Positions 1 to 36,657 of a DNA stretch of 48,867 nucleotides are shown here, in pieces. The notes under the pieces are model-generated. The model did no database searches, had not been told where the DNA came from, and worked only from the letters and a program-made list of their open reading frames with translations. A program made the position numbers and the translations under genes. Source of the stretch: Candidatus Micrarchaeota archaeon (GTDB taxonomy: Archaea > Micrarchaeota > Micrarchaeia > Anstonellales > Bilamarchaeaceae); NCBI GenBank assembly GCA_030613375.1, contig JAUWMC010000003.1, positions 1-48,867 on the forward strand, in the 5' to 3' direction. The first letter of the stretch is position 1. Every line of letters starts with the position of its first letter.

Positions 1-150
1 TGTCCTCAATTTCTCGAGGTTATCCCCGTCTATAGGGTAGATTGACTACGGGTTACTCAGCAGTCTGCCACCCCAGGAAGTCCTAGGGTTAGACTTGCAT
101 GGCTTAGTCGAACTCCGATAGCAGTACCCTCCAGCAGGATCAACTGGAGT
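1..150 (-). rRNA. rrs: 16S rRNA, 5' end (gene continues beyond window start)
   Basis: Reverse complement reads ACTCCAGTTGATCCTGCTGGAGGGTACTGCTATCGG...CTAAGCCATGCAAGTC...GAGTAAC...GGGATAACCTCGAGAAA, matching the archaeal 16S 5' domain (consensus ATTCCGGTTGATCCTGCCGGA...CTAAGCCATGC). Confidence 0.96.
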
Positions 151-501: not shown

Positions 502-3500
502 ATGAAGTGGCGCAGAGTAACCGATATTCGGCCGGTTGGAAAACCAAATAATACACAGCCTTTAGCTGCAACTAGGATTAGAAGGGCAAAACTGAAAGCG
601 AAAAGATTTTTTTCAGGAGTTCTTGCTGCAGGAATTATTACTGCTGCCTTCGGTGCATCGGCGCAAGATATAAATACTACTAAGTCTACAAATTATAATA
701 GTGGTGAAGAAATGGCGAGGCGTGTTGTCAAATCTCAGGATAAAATCAATGAAAGAATAGATTCACTTATCAAAAATGCACAAGTGGAACTCAATGGGCT
801 TGGGCTCGCTACTGAGGAGAATTTATACCTGATTTCTAATCTTGGAAAATGCCTGAAAATAATGAACAAAGATAGCCACAGCCCAAGGGATGAGAAATTC
901 ATTGAAAGGCTCATGAACAAAGAGGAAATCCTAAAGGACACGCACGGGGAAGAATCTTATGATTATGTGATGGAAAAGCTGAGGGAACTGGTAAAGCCAT
1001 CTGTTGATGTTGATTCAGTTGAAAAAGAGTATGGAGTAGTTGGAGTAATGGCAGAAGTCCTCAGCAAGTATGAAAAAAGTGGTGGAAAGCCTGTATTTGA
1101 AAGTGGAACGCTGAATGATTCTGAGTATGGATTTTTGAGGGCATTGCTTGCGCAGGGAGTTCCTGCGGAAGAATATGCGCGGGGTGCGGCAGCAAAGCCT
1201 GCAGACCTTTCTGCTGTTCCGATGAAAGAGCTTGAGGGTCCGCCCAGCACCAAGAAAACAACAAATTACCCCTCTTTTATAGAGAAAATGGAGCTCATCA
1301 AACTGATTTCTGATTATAAGGAGAATCCAAATGACTGGGCACTCCAGAAGATGGTTTACAGAATTAATTACCTGAGAGATGAGAAATCAAAACTTGAGCA
1401 TGGGCAGGCAGATGCAGAGATTGCAGAGCTGAACAAGTGGATTGCAAGCCTTGGGATAGAAACCAAAGGAAAAAATGATGTGCAGAAAGCGCTCTTTGGA
1501 ATTGCAATGGTGCGCAACGGGATGGCAATGATCCATAATATGTACAACTCCGTGGCTCCGAATGACAAAACACTTACCAAGTACCTTACTGCAGTTTCGA
1601 AAAACAAGAACCTGTTTAATATTTACAAGAAATATCTTTCTGCTTTGGATGCAACTTCCGCAAACCTTTTTGAGGGAATCAAAACAAGAGATTCTGTATA
1701 TATCAATAAAGTGCAGAACAGGATTGATTCAAGATTAGGGCTTGCTGAAGTAAAGAGAGCACAGGCTCAGTGGTTTACTGATTATTTTCCAATGGTTTCC
1801 CCGCAGATGGAAGATATGAAAATGAGCCAGCTGGAAGCACAGATGTATGACAAAAGTTCAAACATGAGCCCGATTGCAGCACTTGCATTTTACAAGTATC
1901 TTGAAACGGTTTACAACAGCGGGCTGGATAGTATGGAAGAAAAAAGGCTTGTTGTGAGTACCGTTTCGAAACTTAATGCTGTAAGCCCGACACTTATTCC
2001 CAGATATTTCCAGGCAATACAAAACCTTGCGGAGATTTGCGAAGGGGATGCAGATGTGTTCAGAGATGCAATGACCGTTATTTCCACAAGAATAGACATG
2101 GAAACCAATCCCATTACTTCGAGGCTTTCACCTGCTTCACTTTTCCCTGAGGGGATGAATGTAAGAAGGGTTGTTACTAGGCTGGATAATGCACTTCAGG
2201 AGATTGCAAAAATAGAGAAGAGTGCGCTGAGCCAGTATGAAAGAATGGAGCTCATGGATGATAAAGTGTATATACACCGGGCTCCTCCGCACTCAATCGA
2301 ACAGAAGCCTCCGGGGTATGCCCCGCGACTCCTTACTCCCCTGGACAGAGGGAGGAGGTTTATCCCTCCATACTTTATGCCACATAGGATTCCGTTTCCC
2401 TCAACTGGCACTCCATATACTGCAGGTGGATTGAAAACTTCTCCTATGAGCTATGGGGGAGGGTTGACCATGCCGCAGTTCAGGCAGCTTTCAGTTCCTA
2501 CCTGGGCAACAGCGGTCGGGCAGGCATTTAAGAATTATGTTGAGCCGCAGCATCCGTTGGTTCCGATTAATGAGTATCTTCCAGGAGTGAATATTTCCTC
2601 ACTTAGCCATACAAGACTAATGATGGAGATAAACAAAGCATTTATCCCAACGGATATGCCACAATATGGAGGGCCGCTTATAGGGGGTGGAGGCTTTGCT
2701 GGAGTTGCGGGCAAAGAAAAGACGGTGGAAACTGAAGAAGGCCCTGAAAAGGAATGGGATGTTGGGGCTGCCACTGCAGGTGCGCTTATCACTCCTACGG
2801 GAGGCGTACTGTGGGGAGGAGGAATGGAAGAAGATCAGCGTGTGTTTGGAGGAATTGGAGCGCTTGCGGTACCGATTGGAAAGCTTCCGATTGCAAGCGG
2901 GGGAATGAGCGATGAGGAAAAGGTTTCAGGAATAGACAGCGCGCTTGCGGGGTATGAACAATCTCTTGCTGCGGATGATGAGAGCAAGGAACTTCTCATT
3001 AATACTATTGCAACCCACTGGAACCCAACAAACCCAAGCCAGAGCCTTGCTGTTGTGAACATGATTGAGAATGTAGAAGGAAAGCAGGTAATGACCGCTA
3101 GATACTACTACATACAAAAAGACGGGACAATTTTTGAGATTAAAGGAGGAAAAAATGATTTTGTTGATGCATTGAACTATGTTGCAGGTTTCGGGAACCA
3201 GGCATTTGATACTCCTACTACCTATGCGTGGAACGTTGAGCCTACAATAGATAGAGGGGGGGGTGCGATTGCATTTGACATTGAAAAAACAGCTTGGCTT
3301 GGGCATGTGCAGGCAGTTCCGTTCATAAAAGAAAAGGGAGCGGACCAGCCGCTTCTTTTGCAGTGGACTCCTGCGGAAGCAACAACTGTGAAGAAAATGG
3401 ATGCGGCCGGGAAAGTAAAGTCAACAGATATTCATGTTATTGCACTGCCCGGAAAAATGCTTACGATACAGAGGCCAGGAGAAGAAGGGAAGACATTTGA

Positions 3501-5307
3501 AGATAAGTACGTAATTCAGGATGTGGATTACACAATGAGAAGGGTAAAGGAAAAGAGTGCCTGGCAGCTTGATATGGGTGTGGGCCTTGGGGAATCTCAT
3601 ACTGGTGAAACCTCCGAACGAGAAGCTGAGGAAACAATGTTCGGAAAGGGAGGGTTCTTCATAAAAAGCCAAAGTAGAGAAACCAAGTTTGACCGCAGGG
3701 GAGGAGGATTGTTCTATGAAGCAGGCTCTTCAAATATGGAAGCTATGGCACTGATGAGCGAATCAGAATCTGTGCAGCAATATATACACAGCCTGCATAG
3801 GATTGGCGGTACGCTTTACGGTGCAAAGCACAGCGAAAAGAAAGATGGGCTTGTGATGGGGGGATTGATCCATGTGGTTGAACAACTCCAGAAAACAAGC
3901 GAGCAGGAAGGGCAAGCAGGGGAGATGGGACACAACCAGGTATTCTGGAGAACGGTTGGATTTTTGAAGAGCCTTGAAAGCGGAAGCGGTGCAAGGTTGG
4001 ACGTAAGCAGAATTTCCGGACTTGACCAGATGATGGCGGATTATGAAGAGCTACGCAGAGACGTTGGAAACAACCCAATGCAAGCTGGAGAACTTACATC
4101 CGATTTCTACGAGAAATATGAACAATCAATAGAGAAGGTATGGAACTACTACAACCTGGGAATCCAAGTAAACAATGACTGGTCACTTGACGTGGTGCTT
4201 GTTACTATTGAGGAAAAGGAAAAATGGTGGGAGCAAGACCTCAACATGGTGCAGGGAAGAACTCTTGTAGATTGGGAAAGCGGATTTTGGAGAGCATACG
4301 CATCCGTTCCCATATGGGGACCATACGGAACCCAAGGAGGTGAAGCAAAGGGCATTGTAGGCACTGGAGTAGGGCAAGAACTATTCAATGGTTTCTGGTT
4401 CCAAAGGGCTGCAGTTGATGCTGGAGTCTTGCTTGTAAAAACAGTTGTGAGCGAAACTGTTGAGGCAGAAGGAGAAAAATGGGCATGGAAAGATCCTGGT
4501 ATGTTTGTGGAGGGAGCTGTGCGAGTTTTCTCAAATATTCTTGAGGATGCAAATGATTACAGAAGGCTCATGACTGAGTACAATGAATACGTGAGCCAGA
4601 TAAGGAGAGGAAACTTCTCAGGGATTCCTCCAGAAATACGGAACACGATTTGCGATGCGCTAGATACTGATGTTATTCCTGAACAGCTTGTAGATGAAAT
4701 ACGTGCCGGGGAGAACCACATAATAATGGAAAGTGTTCAGAAAGCTGCTGTGGAAGATGAACTTTGGAGCGAATGGTTCTACGACAGGAAATCCACAATA
4801 CAGGAAGACTTTGATGGGCATGTGAGATGGTACCTAGGTACAAGTGGATATTTCTATGCGGACAAAACAAGGTGGGACATAGCTACCTTTGTAGAACATG
4901 TAAGCGGATTCAAGATATATGCAGCGGTTACCAAAACAGAAGGGGAGATGATGACTGTGGAGGGTCCGGTACAGAAGGAAGAACTCGGGGCTTACACTGG
5001 TGCGGAGTTTGAGACTAAAGACTGGAGACTTGGGGTGATGGGAAACATTACGGATAATGTGGACCTCGGAGCAGCAGTTTCCCTTGAGTACAAATTCGGT
5101 CCAGAGGAATACGGATACTTCAGGGTAGGACTGTATGGATTTGTGCACAGCGAAACAATTCCGCAATACACTGCGCCCATGTATACGCCAAGTATACGCA
5201 CTGCGATACCTGAGTTCGGAGCAGGGATGTACTTCCAAATTGGAGAAGGATCATACATGCCTTATCCAATGAGCACGCCTACGGGAGAAACCCCAATAGG
5301 CCCATAG
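502..5307 (+). CDS. Giant secreted/surface hypothetical protein; helical N-half, Pro-rich linker, beta-strand-rich (beta-barrel-like) C-half
   Basis: 1601-aa ORF with a basic N-region, hydrophobic h-region (FFSGVLAAGIITAAFG) and ASA-Q cleavage-like motif. The C-half has many Gly/aromatic strands with alternating polarity. Confidence 0.85.
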   Translation: MKWRRVTDIRPVGKPNNTQPLAATRIRRAKLKAKRFFSGVLAAGIITAAFGASAQDINTTKSTNYNSGEEMARRVVKSQDKINERIDSLIKNAQVELNGLGLATEENLYLISNLGKCLKIMNKDSHSPRDEKFIERLMNKEEILKDTHGEESYDYVMEKLRELVKPSVDVDSVEKEYGVVGVMAEVLSKYEKSGGKPVFESGTLNDSEYGFLRALLAQGVPAEEYARGAAAKPADLSAVPMKELEGPPSTKKTTNYPSFIEKMELIKLISDYKENPNDWALQKMVYRINYLRDEKSKLEHGQADAEIAELNKWIASLGIETKGKNDVQKALFGIAMVRNGMAMIHNMYNSVAPNDKTLTKYLTAVSKNKNLFNIYKKYLSALDATSANLFEGIKTRDSVYINKVQNRIDSRLGLAEVKRAQAQWFTDYFPMVSPQMEDMKMSQLEAQMYDKSSNMSPIAALAFYKYLETVYNSGLDSMEEKRLVVSTVSKLNAVSPTLIPRYFQAIQNLAEICEGDADVFRDAMTVISTRIDMETNPITSRLSPASLFPEGMNVRRVVTRLDNALQEIAKIEKSALSQYERMELMDDKVYIHRAPPHSIEQKPPGYAPRLLTPLDRGRRFIPPYFMPHRIPFPSTGTPYTAGGLKTSPMSYGGGLTMPQFRQLSVPTWATAVGQAFKNYVEPQHPLVPINEYLPGVNISSLSHTRLMMEINKAFIPTDMPQYGGPLIGGGGFAGVAGKEKTVETEEGPEKEWDVGAATAGALITPTGGVLWGGGMEEDQRVFGGIGALAVPIGKLPIASGGMSDEEKVSGIDSALAGYEQSLAADDESKELLINTIATHWNPTNPSQSLAVVNMIENVEGKQVMTARYYYIQKDGTIFEIKGGKNDFVDALNYVAGFGNQAFDTPTTYAWNVEPTIDRGGGAIAFDIEKTAWLGHVQAVPFIKEKGADQPLLLQWTPAEATTVKKMDAAGKVKSTDIHVIALPGKMLTIQRPGEEGKTFEDKYVIQDVDYTMRRVKEKSAWQLDMGVGLGESHTGETSEREAEETMFGKGGFFIKSQSRETKFDRRGGGLFYEAGSSNMEAMALMSESESVQQYIHSLHRIGGTLYGAKHSEKKDGLVMGGLIHVVEQLQKTSEQEGQAGEMGHNQVFWRTVGFLKSLESGSGARLDVSRISGLDQMMADYEELRRDVGNNPMQAGELTSDFYEKYEQSIEKVWNYYNLGIQVNNDWSLDVVLVTIEEKEKWWEQDLNMVQGRTLVDWESGFWRAYASVPIWGPYGTQGGEAKGIVGTGVGQELFNGFWFQRAAVDAGVLLVKTVVSETVEAEGEKWAWKDPGMFVEGAVRVFSNILEDANDYRRLMTEYNEYVSQIRRGNFSGIPPEIRNTICDALDTDVIPEQLVDEIRAGENHIIMESVQKAAVEDELWSEWFYDRKSTIQEDFDGHVRWYLGTSGYFYADKTRWDIATFVEHVSGFKIYAAVTKTEGEMMTVEGPVQKEELGAYTGAEFETKDWRLGVMGNITDNVDLGAAVSLEYKFGPEEYGYFRVGLYGFVHSETIPQYTAPMYTPSIRTAIPEFGAGMYFQIGEGSYMPYPMSTPTGETPIGP

Positions 5308-5354: not shown

Positions 5355-5744
5355 ATGAAGCTCGAATATGTTGAATTTTATGCAGGGGATGTAAGAAGAA
5401 ATAGTCCTAAGGCTCCGGAATCATTCAAAACAAATATTTCCATTACTGAAGCCCAGGCAAAGGGAGATACGCTGAATTTGACCTTTGATTATACTGTAGG
5501 GTATGCACCAGGTAATAGTGGGTTGCACTTAACCGGAAAGGCTGCGTTTATTGGAAAGGATGCAGAAAATGCCCGGAAAGAGTGGGTAAAGAGCAAGACC
5601 ATTACGGGTGCATCCGGAGAATATATAGTAAATACTATTTACTATCACTCTTCTTTGCAGGCAATCCAGATTGCAAGGCTTTTTGGGCTTACTGCACCCG
5701 TGGTTTTCCCGCAGATGAAATTTGCAGGCAAAAAGAAAAAGTAG
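5355..5744 (+). CDS. Conserved archaeal hypothetical protein, possible SecB-like fold
   Basis: 129 aa with GAGG SD upstream. Four predicted beta-strands, then a helix and a C-terminal (L/T)xxPxxxP pattern (GLTAPVVFP) reminiscent of SecB-like proteins; fold is inference. Confidence 0.6.
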   Translation: MKLEYVEFYAGDVRRNSPKAPESFKTNISITEAQAKGDTLNLTFDYTVGYAPGNSGLHLTGKAAFIGKDAENARKEWVKSKTITGASGEYIVNTIYYHSSLQAIQIARLFGLTAPVVFPQMKFAGKKKK

Positions 5745-5826
5745 ACAAAATCCTTCACTAATCATGCAAAAATGCAGGCTTCTTTGGTTCAGAAGGATTA
5801 TTTAAGTTTTTCTGATATATGGGGTT

Positions 5827-6408
5827 ATGGAGGATAGGCTTGCAACTGTGATCATAGTTCTTTTTGTAGCATCATTGCTAATAGTGGCAGGCATGGGATT
5901 CTACGAGGAAGATGTGCAGATTGATGATGCTACTGATTATGTACTTGAGGATTTGGTGGGGAAATATCCGAATGCGGATGTTGCTGAATTAATGGATTGG
6001 GAAACGCTCCAAAATGAAGAGGGGGAGGATTATTTGAGGATTCGCGCCCGGGTTACTGAGGGGATTTATACTCCATGTCCTGTAAGGGTACATTATTTCT
6101 ACTATTATCCAGTACAGAACTTTGTAACAGACCCTCCTGAGTATATTACTACATCTTCATGCACCGTATGCGAAGGACAAGGATGCGTAATCGGGTTTGA
6201 GGAGGAAGCGATAATTGCTTCCCATATGAATTCAGGAACCCAGAGTGTACACAATTATGTAATGACTTATGATGATGTGGTTCCTGTAGTTTACAGGGAT
6301 GATGCAGGCTGGAAAGTGAAGTGGGATTCCCCTTCTGCCAGGTTTGGATACTTTGTTGAGATTGCAAGAAATGGGGAAATAACCAAAGTAGATACTGTAT
6401 ATTACTGA
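5827..6408 (+). CDS. N-terminally membrane-anchored acidic extracellular protein with 4 Cys
   Basis: N-terminal TM helix (LATVIIVLFVASLLIVAGMGF), then an acidic domain with CP..C..C..C; AT-rich box about 30 nt upstream. Confidence 0.7.
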   Translation: MEDRLATVIIVLFVASLLIVAGMGFYEEDVQIDDATDYVLEDLVGKYPNADVAELMDWETLQNEEGEDYLRIRARVTEGIYTPCPVRVHYFYYYPVQNFVTDPPEYITTSSCTVCEGQGCVIGFEEEAIIASHMNSGTQSVHNYVMTYDDVVPVVYRDDAGWKVKWDSPSARFGYFVEIARNGEITKVDTVYY

Positions 6409-10551: not shown

Positions 10552-11677
10552 GGATAGTTGGCACAATAATTGAGCCCATCAAAATTGTTCTTTCTACATT
10601 CAATCTTATGCATAAATACCCTAGGGCGGTTGCTACGAAAAAGAGCATCAAACCTGGAAGCGAATCTATAAGAAATATGATTAATATTAGGTAAATTGCA
10701 AGCATTGTATTCATGATGCTGAAATTGATTTTGGAGATTTCCCCTATTTTTGGCCTGAAGATATAGACGAGAATACAAGCAAAGGCGATTCCAATTATGA
10801 ATACGGAAAGGTAGGGAATGAGTGCATCTTGTATTGGAGTTATAGAGGAAGCTTCTGCAATTGCACCTATTCTTGCTTTGCCTAATGTAGATGCGGTAGA
10901 GAAAGCAAATACTGATTCACTTACTCCAATTGAAGCGATCGTTGCAAGGTATGCAACCCCTGCAAAGGGGACTATTATTGAGGCAAATGCTGCTACTTGT
11001 GCGGGAGAGCTTATTCCTGGAAGTAGGTCTGCAATCCATCCTAAGAATACTCCCAGCGCTGCAAATTTTAGTATGGAAAGGTCTATTCTTTTTGGGAGTT
11101 TTTGCTCAGGAAGCTTTGCGTTTGAGTAGGTGAAAATTGCGGCCATTGCAAACATTCCGGTAAATAGTGGGAGGAATGGATCCGGGAGGCCTAAGGAAAA
11201 TGCCTGCTTTCCGATTACCCCTGCAAGTATAAAGATTAGGAGAGCACCTAAGGGATTTTTGCTTCTTAGAACCAAAATTGCGGAAGCGATAATGAGGATG
11301 TGGAAAAGGTATGGCTGGATTGCCGGGAAAACTATTGGGTAGAGTGCCTGAGAGACTGGGAATAGGGTGATGCAGATTAATACTGCAAATATTGCGGAAA
11401 CCACCATTACTGTGAGGGCTTCGAGGCCTTTTCCTTTCATGGCCATTCTGTGGCCAGGGAGCACGGAAAGAACTACGGTTGAGTCCGGAATTCCTAGGAA
11501 AATTGAGGGAATGTATGCAATTATGGAATGGACTGCAAACATCGCAATTATTGCAAATGGAAGGTCAGGGGATAAGATATTCAAAGAAAGAAGAACTGAT
11601 GTAAGAGTATTGGGGTGCAGCCCCGGAATTAGTCCTGTGAGCAATCCAAGGAAAAGGGCGAGAATTATCAGAATCAT
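10538..11677 (-). CDS. TctA/DUF112-family tripartite tricarboxylate transporter-like membrane protein
   Basis: GLIPGLHPN, IPSIFLGIPD and SVLPGHRM..KGKG motifs, internal repeat LLPGISS, about 11 TM helices. Confidence 0.85.
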   Translation of the reverse strand: MILIILALFLGLLTGLIPGLHPNTLTSVLLSLNILSPDLPFAIIAMFAVHSIIAYIPSIFLGIPDSTVVLSVLPGHRMAMKGKGLEALTVMVVSAIFAVLICITLFPVSQALYPIVFPAIQPYLFHILIIASAILVLRSKNPLGALLIFILAGVIGKQAFSLGLPDPFLPLFTGMFAMAAIFTYSNAKLPEQKLPKRIDLSILKFAALGVFLGWIADLLPGISSPAQVAAFASIIVPFAGVAYLATIASIGVSESVFAFSTASTLGKARIGAIAEASSITPIQDALIPYLSVFIIGIAFACILVYIFRPKIGEISKINFSIMNTMLAIYLILIIFLIDSLPGLMLFFVATALGYLCIRLNVERTILMGSIIVPTILILF

Positions 11678-12725: not shown

Positions 12726-13790
12726 ATGAGAGCTGTGCTGGCCCTGAAGGATGGAACTGTTCTTCATGGCGCTGGTTTTGGCGCTGAGGGGGAAAGAACC
12801 GGGGAGCTTGTTTTCAATACTTCTATGACTGGGTACCAAGAGACGCTTACAGACCCGAGCTATGGGGGGCAAATCCTGCTTATGACTTATCCTTTGATTG
12901 GAAACTATGGAGTGAATAAAGAGGATAATGAAAGCGATAGGATTCATGCACCGGGGTTTGTAGTGCGGGAATTGAGCCCGGATTTCCAGCACCGCTCTGC
13001 AGAGGGCTCTGTGGACTCTTTTTTGAAGAAGAATGGGGTTCCTGGGATTTGTGGGGTGGATACGCGGTTCCTGGTTCGGAGAATACGGAGTAAGGGGGTT
13101 ATGCCTGCAATTATTGCTACTTCTACGGGTAAGATTGATGTTGAGAAACTTCTTTCTAAACTTGAGGGGTTTGATTATTCTGCAACTGATTATGTGGCTG
13201 AAGCAGGGGTAAATGAACCTAAAATATTCGGAAACGGAAATCCAAAGAAGGTTGCTTTGCTGGATTTCGGAGTGAAGATGGGAATTGTGCGGGAGCTTGT
13301 GAAGCGTGGGTGTGAAGTGCACGTACTTCCTGCATATTCAAGTACAGAGGATGTGAAGGCACTTGAGCCGGATGGAATAATGCTCTCTAATGGGCCCGGG
13401 GACCCTGCAGTGGTTACAGGGATACATAAAACCGTGAAAGAGCTTGCGGGGTTTAAGCCGATGTTTGGAGTTTGTTTGGGGCATCAGGTGCTTGCGCACG
13501 CGTTTGGAGGAAACACTTTCAAATTGAAATTTGGGCACAGGGGGTCAAATCATCCTGTTCTGGATTTGGAGAGGAACCGAGTGGCGATTACTACGCAGAA
13601 CCATGGGTTTGCAGTGGATAAGATTCCTAAAGGATTTGAGCTTACGCATACGCACCTGAATGATGGGAGCATAGAGGGGATGCGGAATAAAGAATTGGAA
13701 ATATTTTCTGTGCAGTACCATCCTGAGGCTTCTCCCGGGCCCCATGATTCCGGGTACCTTTTCGATGAGTTCGTGGGGCTGATGGAGTGA
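12726..13790 (+). CDS. carA: Carbamoyl-phosphate synthase small subunit
   Basis: GELVFNTSMTGYQE.LTDPSY, SNGPGDP, GVCLGHQ (catalytic Cys) and QYHPEA. Confidence 0.97.
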   Translation: MRAVLALKDGTVLHGAGFGAEGERTGELVFNTSMTGYQETLTDPSYGGQILLMTYPLIGNYGVNKEDNESDRIHAPGFVVRELSPDFQHRSAEGSVDSFLKKNGVPGICGVDTRFLVRRIRSKGVMPAIIATSTGKIDVEKLLSKLEGFDYSATDYVAEAGVNEPKIFGNGNPKKVALLDFGVKMGIVRELVKRGCEVHVLPAYSSTEDVKALEPDGIMLSNGPGDPAVVTGIHKTVKELAGFKPMFGVCLGHQVLAHAFGGNTFKLKFGHRGSNHPVLDLERNRVAITTQNHGFAVDKIPKGFELTHTHLNDGSIEGMRNKELEIFSVQYHPEASPGPHDSGYLFDEFVGLME

Positions 13791-16700
13791 AGAAGGTGCT
13801 GGTTATCGGGAGCGGCCCCATAGTTATTGGACAGAGTGCCGAGTTTGATTATTCTGGTGCGCAGGCATGTAGGGCACTTAGGGAAGAGGGGAAGGAGGTT
13901 GTGCTGGTTAATTCGAATCCTGCTACCATTCAAACAGATTATGAGATGGCGGATAGGGTGTATATTGAACCCCTTACCTGTGAAGTGCTGGAGAAGATTA
14001 TTGAAAGGGAGGAACCGGATGCGCTGCTTGCAACTGTGGGCGGGCAGACCGGGCTTAATTTATCCATGGAATTGTGCAAGAAGGGAATTCTGGAGAAGCA
14101 TAATATTGCGTTTTTGGGAACGGATGCGAAATCAATAGAAATGGCAGAGTCTCGCGAAGAATTCAACATGCTTATGGAAAAGATTGGAATTCCGATAATG
14201 CCTGGGAAAGTAGTGAAGGAGTTTGAGAGTGCTAAAGGGTTTGTGGAATCGATTGGGTATCCTGTTATTATCCGCCCTTCTTTTACGCTTGGGGGAACCG
14301 GAGGGGGAACTGCGTTTAATGAAAAAGAGCTTGGGGAATTTGTGGAGTCTGCAACCCGCCTTAGCGCAACCGGGGAAGCGCTTGTGGAAAAGAGCGCTTT
14401 GGGCTGGGGGGAATTTGAATATGAAGTTGTTAGGGATGCGGATGGGAATGCAGTAATTATCTGCAATATGGAGAATATTGACCCTATGGGAGTGCATACG
14501 GGGGAGAGCATTGTGGTTGCGCCTTCGCAAACTTTGAGTGATGTGGACCACCAGGTTTTGCGTAATGCTGCACTGAAGATTGTGCATGCTGTGGGGATTG
14601 AGGGCGGATGCAATGTGCAATTTTCAATGAACCAGGAAACCGGGGAATTTTTTGTGATTGAGATTAATCCTCGGCTTTCCAGGTCTTCTGCACTTGCTTC
14701 AAAAGCTACGGGGTATCCGATTGCGCGAGTTGCAACCAAGATTGCTTTGGGAAAAAGGCTGCATGAGATAAAAAATGCAATTACCGGGACTTCTGCGGCA
14801 TTTGAGCCTGCACTTGATTATGTCATTACTAAAATTCCTAGATGGCCGTTTGATAAGTTTCCCCAGACTTCGCGCGTGATTGGGACGCAAATGAAAAGTA
14901 CTGGGGAAGTAATGGGGATTGGGAGGACTTTTCCTGAGTCTTTGAATAAAGCGATACGGAGTTTGGAGATAAAAATTCCAAAAGAAATTGAGCCTGGGGA
15001 GCATTTGTATCCACCTACGGATTTGAGGCTGTTTGCGCTATTGGAGGCATTTCGGAGGGGGAGCAGTGTTGCGGAACTGCACGAGAAAACAAAAATAAAC
15101 GAGTGGTTCCTGAACCGGATGGGGGAAATGGTAGAGCTGGAGGGGAAAATTAAGGAGGGGCTGGGGAAGAAAGTTCTATTGGAAGCGAAGCGTGCGGGTT
15201 TTTCTGATGAGCAGATTGGTGCGCTTAGCGGGAAAAGTGAATTGGAAGTGCGGAAGCTGAGGAAAGGATTTGGAATAGTGGCTAAATATAAAACCGTGGA
15301 TTCATGCGCTGGGGAGTTTGAGGCGATTACCCCATACTATTATTCTACGTATGAAGATGAGAATGAAGCTGGGGAGATGGAGGGGAAAAAGATTATTGTA
15401 ATTGGATCTGGGCCAATACGGATTGGGCAGGGGATTGAATTTGATTATTGCTGCTCGCATGCTGCTTTTGCAATTAGGGAAATGGGGTACAAGAGCATTA
15501 TGATTAACAATAATCCGGAAACGGTAAGCACGGATTTTGATTCCAGTGATCGTTTGTATTTTGAGCCGCTTACTTTTGAGGACGTAATGAATATTGTTGA
15601 AAACGAGAATCCTGAAGGAGTAATTGTGCAGCTTGGGGGCCAGACCAGCATAAAGCTCGCAGGAAAGCTTGCAGAAGCAGGGGTTAGAATACTGGGGACT
15701 TCTGTGGATGGGATAGACCTTGCAGAGGATAGGGAGAGGTTTAGCAAGCTTATGGATAAATTGGGGATTCCCCAGCCTGAAAATGGAATTGCGCTTAATG
15801 ATGTTGAGGCATTCCATGTTGCTTCCAGGATTGGGTATCCTGTGGTTGTAAGACCAAGTTATGTGATTGCTGGGAGAGGGATGGAAATTGTACGGGATGA
15901 TGTTGAGCTTCGCAAATATATTGATGAAGCAGTGGAGTTGAGCGGGGAAAAGCCGGTACTTATAGATAGATATTTGGACAATGCAATTGAGTGCGAAGTG
16001 GATGCGGTTAGTGATGGGAAGAAGATTTTCATAAGCGGGGTTATGGAGCATATTGAGCCTGCGGGGGTGCATTCCGGGGATGCAAATATAGTGATTCCTT
16101 CTTTGAGGCTGAGTGATGAGGAAGAGGGGACGATTATTGAATATACTAAAAAGATTGCAAAGGCTTTGGGAATAGTTGGGCTAATTAATATCCAGTATGT
16201 TGTGAAGAAGGGGACCGTGTACATACTGGAAGCTAATCCTCGCGCGAGCAGAACCGTTCCGTTTGTGAGCAAGGCTATTGGGGTGCCGCTTGCAAAGCTT
16301 GCGGTGAAGGCAATGGTTGGGGAGACGCTCCCTGAGATTAAACCTGTGCAGAATCATTATGCGGTAAAGAGCATTGTGTTTCCATTTTTGAAATTGATTG
16401 GAACTGACATAAAATTAGGTCCGGAAATGAGGAGCACCGGGGAAACCATGGGGATTGGGAAGAGCTTTGAGATGGCTTATTACAAAGCACTTCTTGCTGC
16501 AGGAATTGATGTGGATAAAGGGAAACGTGCTGCGTTCCTGAGCTTCAGGGATGATGACCATCCTTATGTGCATGAACTTGCTCCAGTGCTCAAGAAGCTC
16601 GGGTTCAAGATTTATGGAACTCTTGGGACTGTGGGGCCCATTGAGAATGCGATTGCTATTTCCAAAATTGGGAGAGGGTATCCCAGTGTAGTGGACATGA

Positions 16701-16909
16701 TTGAGTCCGGGAGGGTTAATTTAGTGATAAATACTCCTCGGAGGGGCGGGAGTGCCCATACGGACGGGTTCAAAATGAGGAAGGCGAGTATTCAGCAGGG
16801 GATTCCCTGCATTACGAACATAAATACTGCATTTGAGCTTCTGAAGGCTTTGGACACTCTTGATAAGAAAGAGTTGGATGTGCGGACCGTGGAAGAGTAC
16901 GCGGAATGA
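13787..16909 (+). CDS. carB: Carbamoyl-phosphate synthase large subunit
   Basis: GSGPIVIGQSAEFDYSG, two ATP-grasp domains (EINPRLSRSS, EANPRASRT) and a C-terminal MGS-like domain; GTGA overlap with carA. Confidence 0.97.
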   Translation: MKKVLVIGSGPIVIGQSAEFDYSGAQACRALREEGKEVVLVNSNPATIQTDYEMADRVYIEPLTCEVLEKIIEREEPDALLATVGGQTGLNLSMELCKKGILEKHNIAFLGTDAKSIEMAESREEFNMLMEKIGIPIMPGKVVKEFESAKGFVESIGYPVIIRPSFTLGGTGGGTAFNEKELGEFVESATRLSATGEALVEKSALGWGEFEYEVVRDADGNAVIICNMENIDPMGVHTGESIVVAPSQTLSDVDHQVLRNAALKIVHAVGIEGGCNVQFSMNQETGEFFVIEINPRLSRSSALASKATGYPIARVATKIALGKRLHEIKNAITGTSAAFEPALDYVITKIPRWPFDKFPQTSRVIGTQMKSTGEVMGIGRTFPESLNKAIRSLEIKIPKEIEPGEHLYPPTDLRLFALLEAFRRGSSVAELHEKTKINEWFLNRMGEMVELEGKIKEGLGKKVLLEAKRAGFSDEQIGALSGKSELEVRKLRKGFGIVAKYKTVDSCAGEFEAITPYYYSTYEDENEAGEMEGKKIIVIGSGPIRIGQGIEFDYCCSHAAFAIREMGYKSIMINNNPETVSTDFDSSDRLYFEPLTFEDVMNIVENENPEGVIVQLGGQTSIKLAGKLAEAGVRILGTSVDGIDLAEDRERFSKLMDKLGIPQPENGIALNDVEAFHVASRIGYPVVVRPSYVIAGRGMEIVRDDVELRKYIDEAVELSGEKPVLIDRYLDNAIECEVDAVSDGKKIFISGVMEHIEPAGVHSGDANIVIPSLRLSDEEEGTIIEYTKKIAKALGIVGLINIQYVVKKGTVYILEANPRASRTVPFVSKAIGVPLAKLAVKAMVGETLPEIKPVQNHYAVKSIVFPFLKLIGTDIKLGPEMRSTGETMGIGKSFEMAYYKALLAAGIDVDKGKRAAFLSFRDDDHPYVHELAPVLKKLGFKIYGTLGTVGPIENAIAISKIGRGYPSVVDMIESGRVNLVINTPRRGGSAHTDGFKMRKASIQQGIPCITNINTAFELLKALDTLDKKELDVRTVEEYAE

Positions 16910-16952
16910 GGTTTTTTTAATTTATGTGTAGAATAGAGATGAAGGTGGGAAT

Positions 16953-17876
16953 ATGGACTTGAAAGGAAGACACTTTTTGACCCTCTTAGACTACAGCAAA
17001 GAGGAAGTGGAATATCTGTTGGACGTTGCTTTGAAGATGAAAAAGGGTGAGCTTGTGAAGAAATTGCCGGACAAAACCCTGGCGATGCTTTTCCAGAAAT
17101 CATCTACACGCACCAGGATGAGCTTTGAGGCTGGAATGACTCGTTTAGGAGGGCATGGGATGTTCCTGGACATCAAGAACACTCAATTGGGCCGTGGTGA
17201 AAGCATTGAAGATACCGGAAAGACCATGAGTCGTTATGTAGAAGGGATTATGGCCAGGTTGAATGACCATAAGGACATTGAGGGGATCGCAGCTAATGCA
17301 ACTGTTCCTGTGATTAATGCGCTTACGGATATGTACCATCCTTGTCAAACGATGGCGGATATGCTTACTGTACTTGAGAAGAAAGGGAAAGTAGGTGGAT
17401 TAAAGATTGTGTATGTAGGAGATTGCGGATTCAACATGTTCCACTCAACCATGATTGGGTTCTCTAAATTAGGTGCGAATGTTGTTGGATTATGTCCGGA
17501 TAAACCGGAGTATATGCCTAAGCCTGAGATGCTTGAGAAAGTAAGGGCCCAGGCAAAAGGAACTGTTTCTATTTCGCATGATCCTGTGGACGCAGTGAGG
17601 GATGCGGATGTTGTTTATACTGATGTATGGATAAGCATGGGGCAGGATGAAGAGAAAGCAAAAAGGCTTGCGGACTTTGAAGGGTTCCAGGTGAATTCTA
17701 AATTGATGGGGCACGCAAAGCCTGATGCGATCTTTATGCACTGTTTGCCTGCGCACCGCGGAGTAGAAGTTGCTGCTGAAGTAATTGACAGCCCTTGTTC
17801 AGTTGTGTTTGATGAAGCTGAAAATAGATTGTGGGCACAAAATGCGATTCTAGTTGAACTGATGGGCGGAGAATAG
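16953..17876 (+). CDS. argF: Ornithine carbamoyltransferase
   Basis: SSTRT, HPCQ, DVWISMG and FMHCLP motifs (SMG loop is OTC-type, not ATCase). Confidence 0.95.
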   Translation: MDLKGRHFLTLLDYSKEEVEYLLDVALKMKKGELVKKLPDKTLAMLFQKSSTRTRMSFEAGMTRLGGHGMFLDIKNTQLGRGESIEDTGKTMSRYVEGIMARLNDHKDIEGIAANATVPVINALTDMYHPCQTMADMLTVLEKKGKVGGLKIVYVGDCGFNMFHSTMIGFSKLGANVVGLCPDKPEYMPKPEMLEKVRAQAKGTVSISHDPVDAVRDADVVYTDVWISMGQDEEKAKRLADFEGFQVNSKLMGHAKPDAIFMHCLPAHRGVEVAAEVIDSPCSVVFDEAENRLWAQNAILVELMGGE

Positions 17877-17924
17877 ACTCCCCATCCTCTTTCTTTTTAT
17901 TTATTCTCCTATAAAGTGCTTTTC

Positions 17925-19733
17925 ATGATACTCAACGCAAAGCACCAGATTGCAAGCCTTATTTCCAAAGCGACTGATGAGGATGAAAGCGTATGCTTTA
18001 CTACTCTCGAAATTGCTGAAGAGGGAAAGGGGGATGTTGCAAGTAAGATTGGGTTTATTCTGGCAAAGAAGATGAAGATGAGCCCTGCACAGGCTGCGGG
18101 AGAAATTGTAGAGAAGCTCAAACCACATGAGTGGGTGAAAAGCGTTGAGGTTTCTGGTCCATACATAAACTTCTTTTTAAGCGATGAGTTTTACGCTGAA
18201 GCTGTGCGGAGAATCCTGGAGATGGAAAGAGAATATGGATCCGGGAACTCCGGAAGGAGGGTTATTGTAGAGTCTCCTGCTGTGAATCCAAATAAGCCCT
18301 GGCATATTGGACACCTAAGGAATGCGTTGCTTGGAGATTCTGTTGCAAATCTTTTGCAGTTTTCCGGGGATGATGTACAGAGGATGGATTATATTGATGA
18401 TTTGGGTTTGCAGGTTGCTCAGAGTTTGTGGGGCTACCTAAACATGGATAAAAAAATTGAGGGAAAAACTGATCACTGGATTGGGCATGAGTACGTAAAG
18501 GTTGCGGGGATGGTGGAAAAAGATGAAGTTGTAAAAAAATCTATTGAGGGGATTTTGAAGGAGATGGAAAATGGAGGAAATGAAACTGCGGAGAAAGCCC
18601 GGTGGCTTGCAGAAGAATGCGTAAAGGCTCAGTATGAAACCGCATTCAATTATGGAAATCATGAGAATGTGCTTATTTGTGAAAGTGACATTATGCGGGA
18701 AATTTTTGAGGAGGGGATTGAGAAATTGAAGAAAAGTGGGGCAGTTACGCACGAAACCAGTGGAAAGAGCAAAGGATGTTGGGTAGTAAAACTCGGAGGA
18801 AAGATGAGGGGGATGACTGACCCGGATAAGATACTTATACGAAGTAATGGAACTGTTACGTATACTGGAAAGGATATGATTTTTCATTTGTGGAAATTTG
18901 GGAAATTGGAGGGAGATTTCAAATACTCTAAATTCATGGACCAGCCTACAGATGGGGTTGCATACATTACTTCCAAAAAGGGAGTAAAGAAGGATTTTGG
19001 GAAAGCAGATCTGATCGTGAATGTAATTGGAGTGGAGCAGAAGTACCCGCAGGAAGTAATCAAACATGTATTGGGTGTGCTTGAGTACAATAAGGAAGCG
19101 GAGAATTTCGTGCATTTGGCTTATGAGCATGCATGGCTTCCAGAAGTGAAGTTCTCCGGAAGGAAAGGGACTTGGATAGGGCATACAGCAGATGAGCTTG
19201 CAATAGAGGGAAAAAAGAGGGCTTTGGAAAAGGTGAAGAGCGAGCTTCCGGAAGAGGAAAAGGAAATTATTGCTGAAGAAGTTGCGATTGGAGCGATAAG
19301 ATATGCGTTCCTGAAGATTGCCCCTGAGAAGAAATTGGTGTTTAAATGGGATGAAGTTTTGAGTTTGGAAGGCGACTCTGGACCGTATTTGCAATATGCA
19401 TGCGTGCGTGCAAGGAGGATTATGGAAAAGGCGGGGTATGAAGCTGCAGTAAAATCGTATGAATTTAATGCTGAAGAGAAACGGCTGATAAAGGAGCTGG
19501 CGAGGTTCCCGGAGATTGTTGGAAATGCTACAAAAAAGATGAGGCCACACATGGTTTCAGATTACCTTTACTCTCTCTCTAATGTGTTTAGCAAGTTCTA
19601 CACAAACAATCCTGTGATTAAAGCAGAAAATGAAAAGGAGAGGAAGATGAGGCTCGCGATGGTTTCCGCATTTAACAATGTGCTTTCAATTGGATTAGGA
19701 ATTCTTGGGGTCCCTATACCGAATAAAATGTAG
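17925..19733 (+). CDS. argS: Arginyl-tRNA synthetase
   Basis: NPNKPWHIGHLRNA (HIGH), KFSGRKG, GPYLQYA and a DALR anticodon-binding domain. Confidence 0.96.
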   Translation: MILNAKHQIASLISKATDEDESVCFTTLEIAEEGKGDVASKIGFILAKKMKMSPAQAAGEIVEKLKPHEWVKSVEVSGPYINFFLSDEFYAEAVRRILEMEREYGSGNSGRRVIVESPAVNPNKPWHIGHLRNALLGDSVANLLQFSGDDVQRMDYIDDLGLQVAQSLWGYLNMDKKIEGKTDHWIGHEYVKVAGMVEKDEVVKKSIEGILKEMENGGNETAEKARWLAEECVKAQYETAFNYGNHENVLICESDIMREIFEEGIEKLKKSGAVTHETSGKSKGCWVVKLGGKMRGMTDPDKILIRSNGTVTYTGKDMIFHLWKFGKLEGDFKYSKFMDQPTDGVAYITSKKGVKKDFGKADLIVNVIGVEQKYPQEVIKHVLGVLEYNKEAENFVHLAYEHAWLPEVKFSGRKGTWIGHTADELAIEGKKRALEKVKSELPEEEKEIIAEEVAIGAIRYAFLKIAPEKKLVFKWDEVLSLEGDSGPYLQYACVRARRIMEKAGYEAAVKSYEFNAEEKRLIKELARFPEIVGNATKKMRPHMVSDYLYSLSNVFSKFYTNNPVIKAENEKERKMRLAMVSAFNNVLSIGLGILGVPIPNKM

Positions 19734-20474
19734 CTAAGACTTGACGTATTTGAGAGCCTCTTCAAAGTCCATTTTGAATCCGTGCTTGGAGAAATACTTT
19801 ACGATGTTGTACACATCTCTTTCCAGGTATCTTTCTGAATTGGGATGGGAGAGAATTACGCCCTGTCCGAAATCAATAAGGTAAGGCTTGGGGCCAACTA
19901 GAATGTTGTATTCACTTATATCTGCGTGAACCAAGCCCGCACGGTACAGTTTGCGGATGTCTAAAAGAATGCTTTTGAGTTGTGAAATGGATTCCGGACC
20001 CAGAATGTTCAACTGGGTATAAGGGAGCCCATCTTCACCCAAAAATTCCATAATTAAAATATTTTTTACTTGGAGAAGGGGTTTCGGAGCATGCACTTTG
20101 GCTTTGGCGCAAATTTCCAGGTTTTTGTATTCTTTTTGTGCAAAAGCAGATACTAAATCCCTTTCCGTGTGACGGAACTTTTTGAAGCGCCGATCACCTT
20201 CGATGTATTCCTTGCGGCGCATGAACTTGGTTGTTTCAATTTTGTAGATTTTTACTGCAATAGGTGAACCTGAAGGAGTAGTTGCGCGGAATACGTTTGC
20301 TTCTTTCCCTGTGGAAATAGGATTGTCTACTGTTTGAAGTATCCCTTTTCCCATAAGTTTAGAAAGTGCAAGCAAAGTAGAGCGGTCGAAAACTTCACTC
20401 TCTACCTTGAATCGTTCCTTAAGTAAAAAGTCGTCTTTTGAAGGCCTTTTTCTTTTTGAAACCTTCCTAGCCAT
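19734..20474 (-). CDS. rio1: Serine/threonine kinase Rio1
   Basis: STGKEANVF, AVKIY, LVHADISEYN and IDFGQ. Confidence 0.95.
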   Translation of the reverse strand: MARKVSKRKRPSKDDFLLKERFKVESEVFDRSTLLALSKLMGKGILQTVDNPISTGKEANVFRATTPSGSPIAVKIYKIETTKFMRRKEYIEGDRRFKKFRHTERDLVSAFAQKEYKNLEICAKAKVHAPKPLLQVKNILIMEFLGEDGLPYTQLNILGPESISQLKSILLDIRKLYRAGLVHADISEYNILVGPKPYLIDFGQGVILSHPNSERYLERDVYNIVKYFSKHGFKMDFEEALKYVKS

Positions 20475-36572: not shown

Positions 36573-36657
36573 GCCGAGATGGCAGAACCCGGTTAATGCG
36601 CCAGACTTGAGATCTGGTGTCCTTCGGGACATGGGAGTTCAAATCTCTCTCTCGGCG
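36573..36657 (+). tRNA. tRNA-Ser(UGA), CCA not encoded
   Basis: Acceptor GCCGAGA/TCTCGGC, anticodon arm CCAGA-CT-TGA-GA-TCTGG, long variable arm TGTCC-TTCG-GGACA, T-loop TTCAAAT, G discriminator. Confidence 0.95.

Follow-up and report, generated by a model that had tools for sequence, protein, structure and literature searches.

Membrane β-barrels are regarded as typical of the outer membranes of bacteria and organelles, and to our knowledge none has been characterised in archaea. Among the bacterial barrel-anchored surface proteins, the type Va autotransporters consist of a signal peptide, a variable N-terminal part and a conserved C-terminal barrel of 12 strands, and in the SlpA/OmpM-type tethers a very large barrel forms the C-terminus behind a long, helical N-terminal part. 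In this study, a gene for a protein of 1601 amino acids (aa), here called the giant protein, was analysed in the window, that is, the stretch of 48,867 nucleotides (nt) of contig JAUWMC010000003.1 from a Candidatus Micrarchaeota archaeon of the family Bilamarchaeaceae. The protein may well be a membrane-embedded barrel anchor or channel and an accessory envelope protein of one Micrarchaeota family, a reading held at somewhat less than even confidence. An initial annotation of this DNA had assigned the C-terminal ~850 aa to a membrane barrel. The giant open reading frame (ORF) at 502-5307 was confirmed, and all the strand motifs quoted for it were found in the translation.

The structure of aa 1090-1601 alone was predicted with AlphaFold2 from the deeper of two alignments (A6, 51 sequences at 22-89% identity). 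The resulting model 2 had a mean predicted local distance difference test (pLDDT) of 84.4 and a predicted template-modelling score (pTM) of 0.71, with the five models between 73 and 84 and 258 residues at or above 90. It was composed of 19 long strands and one 3-residue strand in the order 4 + 8 + 8, with a helical hairpin (aa 1173-1209) inserted after the initial block of four and an insert of four helices (aa 1346-1438) between the two eight-strand blocks; its first strand spanned aa 1098-1110. Counting 20 strands, strand parity would place both inserts on the same side of the sheet. Searched against the PDB with Foldseek, model 2 had 25 matches at E ≤ 1e-3; those listed were membrane-embedded β-barrels without exception. 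Tom40 of the TOM complex (9j99_I, 6ucv_I, 6ucu_A and 7cp9_I) was matched with target-normalised template-modelling (TM) scores of 0.39-0.44, and OmpU (6ehb) with 0.42. Campylobacter MOMP (5ldt), LptD, OccAB4, OpdK, FadL, maltoporin and PopA were listed as well; the probabilities of the listed matches were mostly 0.9-1.00, and the lowest was 0.38.

Compared with its top matches, Tom40/VDAC (19 strands), OmpU, MOMP and LptD, the domain falls into the same predicted fold class. It shares with Tom40, the porins and LptD the long strands that alternate hydrophobic with Gly or polar residues, the conserved aromatics and a count of 19-20 strands. In contrast to them, the archaeal barrel, known from prediction, has two helical inserts (~130 aa) and ends a 1601-aa chain, shows no sequence relation to them and a TM of at most 0.44, and is encoded by an archaeon without an Omp85/Sam50 relative. 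Even the best Tom40 superposition stayed below a TM of 0.5 (0.44 for 7cp9_I, at a root-mean-square deviation (rmsd) of 13-17 Å), and no Pfam match accompanied it.

Model 1, an AlphaFold2 prediction of aa 581-1601 from an alignment of 19 sequences, was mediocre, with a pLDDT of 62.3, a pTM of 0.52 and two of the five models at 42-44; its confidence was highest over the last 250 residues. Between aa 728 and 1580 it contained about 36 strands, often 10-17 residues in length, together with a small α/β unit and the two helical inserts, in agreement with the 25-35 strands and two helical insertions first read from the sequence. Foldseek returned 63 PDB matches at E ≤ 1e-3, mostly bacterial outer-membrane barrels, such as LptD, the FimD usher, BtuB and other TonB-dependent transporters, SprA, OmpU and the Deinococcus SDBC (8agd), with a query-normalised TM of only 0.07-0.19. 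When a viral fold library was searched, the high-probability matches of model 1 were porin-like and SusC-like entries only. A viral origin was rejected, as this library otherwise gave only low-probability tail-fibre matches. Barrel-type matches were thus returned from both models and both libraries, and no soluble sandwich, propeller or S-layer fold, the outcomes named initially as contrary evidence, was among the listed matches of model 2. The models support the assignment of aa 1090-1601 to a large up-and-down β structure of the membrane-barrel fold class, and the barrel may be closed.

The faces of the predicted strands were then compared across the family. A strand was counted when four alternate positions were at least 70% hydrophobic (Gly counted half) and at most 3% charged. 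Among the barrel strands of aa 1090-1601, 18 of the 19 passed at four positions and 14 of the 19 at five. Random windows of equal length gave a mean of 6.6 of 19 and a maximum of 12 in 500 draws, and the criterion was passed by 8 of the 14 strands of aa 728-1050 and by 2 of the 7 helices. The opposite face of the barrel strands was on average 24% charged and 19% Gly. The hydrophobic stretches were in register, lying at equal distances from the hairpin turns on both sides, and the hairpin of aa 1470-1504 reached ~9 residues past them on both strands. Judged from the alignment, this alternation is the porin strand pattern. The helical inserts are the only candidates to fill the lumen, and with 27-35% charged residues across the family they are unlikely to form a hydrophobic core; the hydrophobic face of the strands would therefore point outward. 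Several strands of aa 958-1050 carried charge on both faces, and their part of the model was of low confidence, so that the barrel claim was limited to aa ~1090-1601. The ~850-aa barrel proposed initially was accordingly retained for ~510 aa with 19-20 strands and given up for aa 730-1090, which are more likely to form a soluble domain of their own, or several.

The layout of the giant protein was as follows:

502-5307, plus strand: gene of the giant protein (P0001), an uninterrupted ORF of 1601 aa.
502-666, plus strand: signal-peptide-like N-terminus, aa 1-55, from hydrophobicity and the N-termini of relatives; cleavage presumed.
667-1281, plus strand: variable N-terminal region, aa 56-260; 21% mean pairwise identity.
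1282-2271, plus strand: conserved helix-prone region, aa 261-590; 38% identity, low Gly/Pro content and helix-like propensity.
2272-2691, plus strand: conserved Pro-rich segment, aa 591-730; 15.7% Pro, 45% identity, mostly low pLDDT in model 1.
2692-3768, plus strand: β-rich middle region, aa 731-1089; from model 1 with mostly low pLDDT, 49% identity, the highest of all regions.
3769-5307, plus strand: predicted 19-20-stranded barrel domain, aa 1090-1601, from AlphaFold2, Foldseek and the strand-face analysis; 44% identity.

The identities are means over 16 full-length relatives, the N-terminally short P0010, P0014 and P0019 being left out. The signal-like N-terminus had a long basic n-region and a 17-residue h-region (aa 36-52) followed by ASA-Q, and the h-region was the strongest Kyte-Doolittle window of the protein (KD19 1.72 at aa 36). 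This layout, terminating in AMAQ or ASAQ, was kept in the relatives, which bears out the Sec-type signal of the initial annotation; several relatives' database entries start at a Met of the signal region, which suggests mis-called starts. The helical region claimed up to about aa 590 fared less clearly. It agreed with the low Gly and Pro content of aa 261-590 (3% each, 6% together) and with a Chou-Fasman-type score, for which the modelled helices and strands served as calibration and by which aa 1-600 were helix-like and almost never strand-like; this is a weak test, and the hydrophobic-moment periodicity of the N-terminal half was noisy. A language-model look-alike search with aa 56-600 gave no usable match. 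The Pro-rich linker placed at about aa 590-730 held up, with 10.7% Gly besides its Pro content. According to model 1, the middle region contained Gly-rich hairpins, the small α/β unit and nine strands. Gly made up 9-13% of the C-terminal 870 aa, and aromatic residues made up 8-13%. The last strand (aa 1571-1580), in whose region P1570, E1571 and G1573 were invariant in the family alignment, was followed by a 21-aa Pro-rich tail with Pro as the final residue.

The order of these parts was the same as that of the type Va autotransporters, which differ in that their family, PF03797, was not matched by the giant protein and in that the model has ~20 strands. The SlpA/OmpM-type tethers also resembled the giant protein in layout, and 8agd_A was matched by model 1 (E 6.7e-4, probability 0.92), with a TM of only 0.18-0.19. 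In contrast to the Deinococcus SDBC and its setting, the giant protein has no SLH domain, and its organism is not known to have peptidoglycan or an outer membrane.

By word-indexed search, 18 relatives were identified (37-89% identity), each of them named hypothetical; two carried the taxon names Micrarchaeota or Bilamarchaeaceae. A profile of the C-terminal ~1000 aa (A5, nine sequences) scored against 1.84 billion representative proteins matched 50 proteins at E ≤ 1e-3, 43 of them at ≤ 1e-30. Ten of the matched clusters were looked up, and the five that were named were all from Micrarchaeota; likewise, all seven loci found among species-representative genomes were from Micrarchaeota metagenome-assembled genomes (MAGs). 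This conservation indicates that the ORF is a real, conserved gene and no chance ORF. The fold class is known, and the family appears, as judged from sequence searches, to be new, unannotated and without a sequence link to any barrel family.

In a sample of the phylum, the giant gene was found in 11 of 201 genomes, all within the family of the source genome (10 of its 36 other genomes, and none of the 164 genomes of 24 other families). A denser sample of the family gave 18 carriers among 61 genomes, spread over 11 of 23 genera and patchy inside genera; in the genus of the source genome, three of the six other sampled genomes carried it (four of seven with the source genome). Most of the family MAGs were 70-97% complete, and incompleteness could not explain the 43 absences. 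The giant gene is thus an accessory gene of one Micrarchaeota family, and its patchiness argues against a role as the general porin in an envelope of two membranes.

The genome (1.156 Mb, 93.84% complete) was searched for envelope families. SecY (PF00344) was present, consistent with a Sec-type signal. In several relatives a twin-arginine-like RR or KR with two Phe/Leu residues stood just before the h-region (aa 30-36 in P0001). The Tat export suggested by this RR/KR-F-F motif was rejected, as TatC (PF00902) had no match in the genome. No match was found in the genome to the porin families Gcw_chp (PF09694) and KdgM (PF06178), nor in the giant protein or the genome to S_layer_N (PF05123). Compared with the Omp85/BAM-dependent outer-membrane proteins, the giant protein shares the N-terminal Sec signal type and differs in having no insertase, aromatic C-terminus or family match.

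For ARMAN-type Micrarchaeota, the first descriptions gave an inner and an outer membrane (PMC4243693). In the one cultivated Micrarchaeon, Ca. Micrarchaeum harzensis, the supposed second membrane has been re-interpreted: the outer layer is an S-layer built of a PF05123-type protein, SLP_Mh, with homologues reported in 38 of 49 genomes (10.1101/2021.04.28.441871). SLP_Mh resembles the giant protein as a large secreted Micrarchaeota envelope protein, and differs in its PF05123 domain, its predicted fold and its wide rather than patchy distribution. Weak S_layer_N matches were found in 11 of the 61 family genomes, only one of which passed the cut-off; they occurred in 1 of the 18 carriers of the giant gene and in 10 of the 43 non-carriers. 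Complementarity between the two genes was rejected, as the signal was weak, with 32 genomes holding neither gene and a single S_layer_N match above the cut-off.

A small gene followed the giant gene directly:

5355-5744, plus strand: partner protein of ~130 aa (129 aa), without signal peptide; 33-46% identity over four loci.
5748-5813, plus strand: inverted repeat and T-run after the partner gene, read from the sequence, with a presumed terminator function.

The gap between the giant and partner genes was 47 nt, with a GAGG-type ribosome-binding site and without a T-run, and the inverted repeat with T-run is likely the end of a two-gene transcript. The partner adjoined the giant gene directly 3' on the same strand in 17 of the 18 carrier genomes; only G208, whose giant-gene match was weak and partial, was without an adjacent copy. 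The partner family was near-universal, with one to three copies in 60 of the 61 family genomes, and copies scoring at least 112 bits occurred only directly downstream of the giant gene (16 full copies and a truncated one in G088), which indicates that the giant gene has its own dedicated paralogue. A polymorphic toxin and immunity pair was rejected, as the C-terminus of the giant protein is conserved and its N-terminus variable, and as paralogues of the partner occur in 60 of the 61 genomes. Another copy of the partner family was seen at 11084-11431 (minus strand) of G000:C72.

The partner ORF has neither a signal peptide nor an in-frame start further upstream. Its 67 relatives were all hypothetical, and none had a Pfam domain. 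Language-model look-alikes were archaeal hypothetical clusters (0.94-0.95) and a DUF1149 cluster (0.90). The look-alike clusters were present in Methanobacteriota, Thermoplasmatota and Microcaldota, and the partner family may be a widespread archaeal protein family. DUF1149 has been assigned to the SecB-like superfamily (PMC6201924). Like the SecB-like chaperones, including DUF1149, the partner is small, without a signal peptide and placed beside an exported client; unlike them, it had no meaningful match by hidden Markov model (HMM), Pfam or PDB profile. From its position, location and the DUF1149 lead, the partner is most likely a dedicated helper, a holdase that keeps the precursor export-competent.

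These observations can be joined into a putative pathway. The small cytoplasmic partner would keep the precursor export-competent, the precursor would pass the membrane via Sec, and the signal peptide would then be removed. The C-terminal ~510 aa would fold as a single-chain membrane-type barrel of ~20 strands, with its non-polar outward face in a lipid layer, its other face polar and Gly-rich, and the two charged helical inserts capping or plugging one barrel mouth. The barrel would be the conserved membrane-embedded anchor or channel, from which the β-rich middle, the Pro-rich segment, the helix-prone region and the variable N-terminal ~200 aa might project, in the layout of the bacterial barrel-anchored surface proteins (autotransporters and the SlpA/OmpM-type stalk plus barrel). 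It could either anchor the protein in the manner of those proteins or insert into the membrane of a partner cell. Insertion into a lipid membrane and any pore, translocon or channel activity of the barrel domain are presumed, and the host contact and periplasm-spanning stalk proposed initially are likewise putative. With an accessory gene, a variable end distal to the barrel and no assembly machine, the protein is unlikely to be a general porin, and surface display or contact is the favoured function. A more far-reaching version is doubtful, namely that an archaeal barrel of ~20 strands assembles without Omp85 in a so far undescribed outer lipid layer or a host membrane as a contact anchor or conduit, with the variable N-terminus setting partner specificity and the cytoplasmic holdase guiding export.

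As the genome lacks a match to Omp85, the predicted, conserved and exported barrel allows the existence of a second lipid layer in some DPANN archaea to be tested on a domain of ~510 aa. The same domain makes testable how lipid-dependent symbionts connect to their hosts, and the giant protein is a candidate case of a barrel that inserts with no assembly machine.

Several results weigh against a membrane-embedded anchor or channel. Bacterial outer-membrane barrels typically terminate in an aromatic residue of the C-terminal strand; such a residue is absent from the giant protein, which has the 21-aa tail after its last strand. Omp85/BamA (PF01103) had no match in the genome, whereas the control was matched in seven diderm bacteria. 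The giant protein matched no Pfam family at E ≤ 1, only chance-level NCBIfam entries, and nothing in the PDB by sequence or profile. With model 2, the TM was 0.19-0.44 to the target and 0.24-0.32 to the query at an rmsd of 13-20 Å; values below 0.5 with such deviations are evidence for a fold class and not for kinship with a particular barrel. As to the hydrophobic outer belt asked for initially, a charge-free hydrophobic face was seen in 18 of the 19 strands, an alternation that a buried sheet face would show as well. The giant gene is missing from 43 of the 61 family genomes, and the cultivated Micrarchaeon has an S-layer instead of a second membrane (10.1101/2021.04.28.441871). For the proposed helper, the HMMs of SecB (PF02556) and DUF1149 (PF06619) had no match in the genome with the cut-off relaxed to E ≤ 10, and a Pfam scan of five members of the partner family and PDB profile searches gave no more than weak matches at chance level (E ≥ 0.13).

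The alternative that survives best, at a low probability, is a surface protein that is soluble or forms a lattice, an adhesin or a substitute S-layer component, whose C-terminus lies outside the membrane. The hydrophobic strand faces are proposed here to be buried against other domains or neighbouring subunits, and an alternating hydrophobic face suits any sheet buried on one side. The low TM to real barrels (below 0.5) and the missing insertase also fit this alternative. In addition, an S-layer is known in Micrarchaeota (10.1101/2021.04.28.441871), and the source genome has no S_layer_N match of its own, as is the case for all but one of the 18 carriers (compared with 33 of the 43 non-carriers), so that another wall protein would be needed. 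However, all listed structural matches were membrane barrels, with no sandwich, propeller or S-layer fold. The inserts carry too much charge to serve as the filling of a hydrophobic lumen, and the non-hydrophobic face, with its 19% Gly and 24% charged residues, is like the lumen of porins. Furthermore, with 18 carriers among 61 genomes and 32 genomes without either gene, the giant protein is not the general wall protein of the family.

Many DPANN archaea have no lipid synthesis and depend on host lipids. It was also considered, as a rather unlikely alternative, that the giant protein handles lipids, its hydrophobic β surface binding or trapping host lipids without forming a pore, like the PopA superfamily or LptD. 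LptD was repeatedly among the Foldseek matches of both models, and pentameric Bdellovibrio PopA (9ga1_A and 9gf0_E) was matched with a probability of 0.92 and a TM to target of 0.28. PopA has been described as lipid-trapping, together with the mention of a possible distant archaeal PopA relative (PMC12228718). However, the PopA and LptD matches were no better than those of plain porins and Tom40, and neither family is related in sequence to the giant protein. As both are membrane-embedded barrels too, this alternative bears on function more than on location. In the literature on DPANN, AlphaFold and porins, the mention of the PopA relative was the only one found in the accessible text, and a supplementary listing of the giant family is possible. 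A full-text search gave no paper combining "Micrarchaeota" and "beta-barrel", and papers on archaea, β-barrels, DPANN and outer membranes included none on such a protein, as judged by title and abstract.

That the barrel is an AlphaFold2 artefact, a Gly/aromatic-rich β-hairpin protein forced into a barrel-like shape, would agree with the poor model 1 (pLDDT 62.3, pTM 0.52, two of five models at 42-44), the shallow alignments (19 and 51 sequences) and the modest TM scores, but is improbable, as the domain model was confident in all five models (73-84, pTM 0.71), the strand pattern was conserved over 51 sequences at 22-89% identity, and two models and two libraries gave one fold class.

The surroundings of the gene pair differed between loci. 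Upstream of the giant gene, the 5' end of a 16S rRNA gene was found on the minus strand (window 1-150, Rfam RF01959), and the same divergent arrangement occurred in two congeneric loci (L001 1-409 and L003 1-747, both on the minus strand). The contigs of the window and of L001-L003 end just upstream of the giant gene because the 16S rRNA gene lies there. The further neighbours in the window were housekeeping genes (ABCE1, Alba, AspRS, CarA and CarB). For this genus, a mobile island was rejected, as the giant gene sits between the 16S rRNA gene and housekeeping genes. In other genera the genes upstream were different and mostly of unknown kind. A conserved larger operon was also rejected, as the upstream genes vary by locus and only one pair of upstream proteins was related (24% identity).

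Next after the partner, a 193-aa ORF (5827-6408, plus strand) had a hydrophobic N-terminal helix and no Pfam match; it was not conserved at this position in the other loci. Between the 16S and giant genes of L001, a 123-aa ORF (693-1064, plus strand) without a Pfam match had a signal-like stretch followed by Gly-Cys-Cys, with the look of a lipoprotein signal, and the shorter spacer in the window held no counterpart. In L005, from a Bilamarchaeum MAG, another giant ORF (13256-19951, minus strand), at least 2231 aa long and also without a Pfam match, was convergent to the giant and partner pair. An AbiEii toxin gene (PF08843, E 1e-28) lay two genes upstream of the giant gene in L004 (5395-6790, plus strand), with a weak AbiEi-like neighbour; this was seen in one MAG. 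In a 619-aa ORF of L014 (2507-4366, plus strand; G205), a prefoldin domain (PF02996, E 1e-15) was joined to the SRP54_N and SRP54 GTPase domains of an FtsY-type SRP receptor, a fusion that looks unusual. The only other Rfam match in the window was a single tRNA gene (36573-36657, plus strand).

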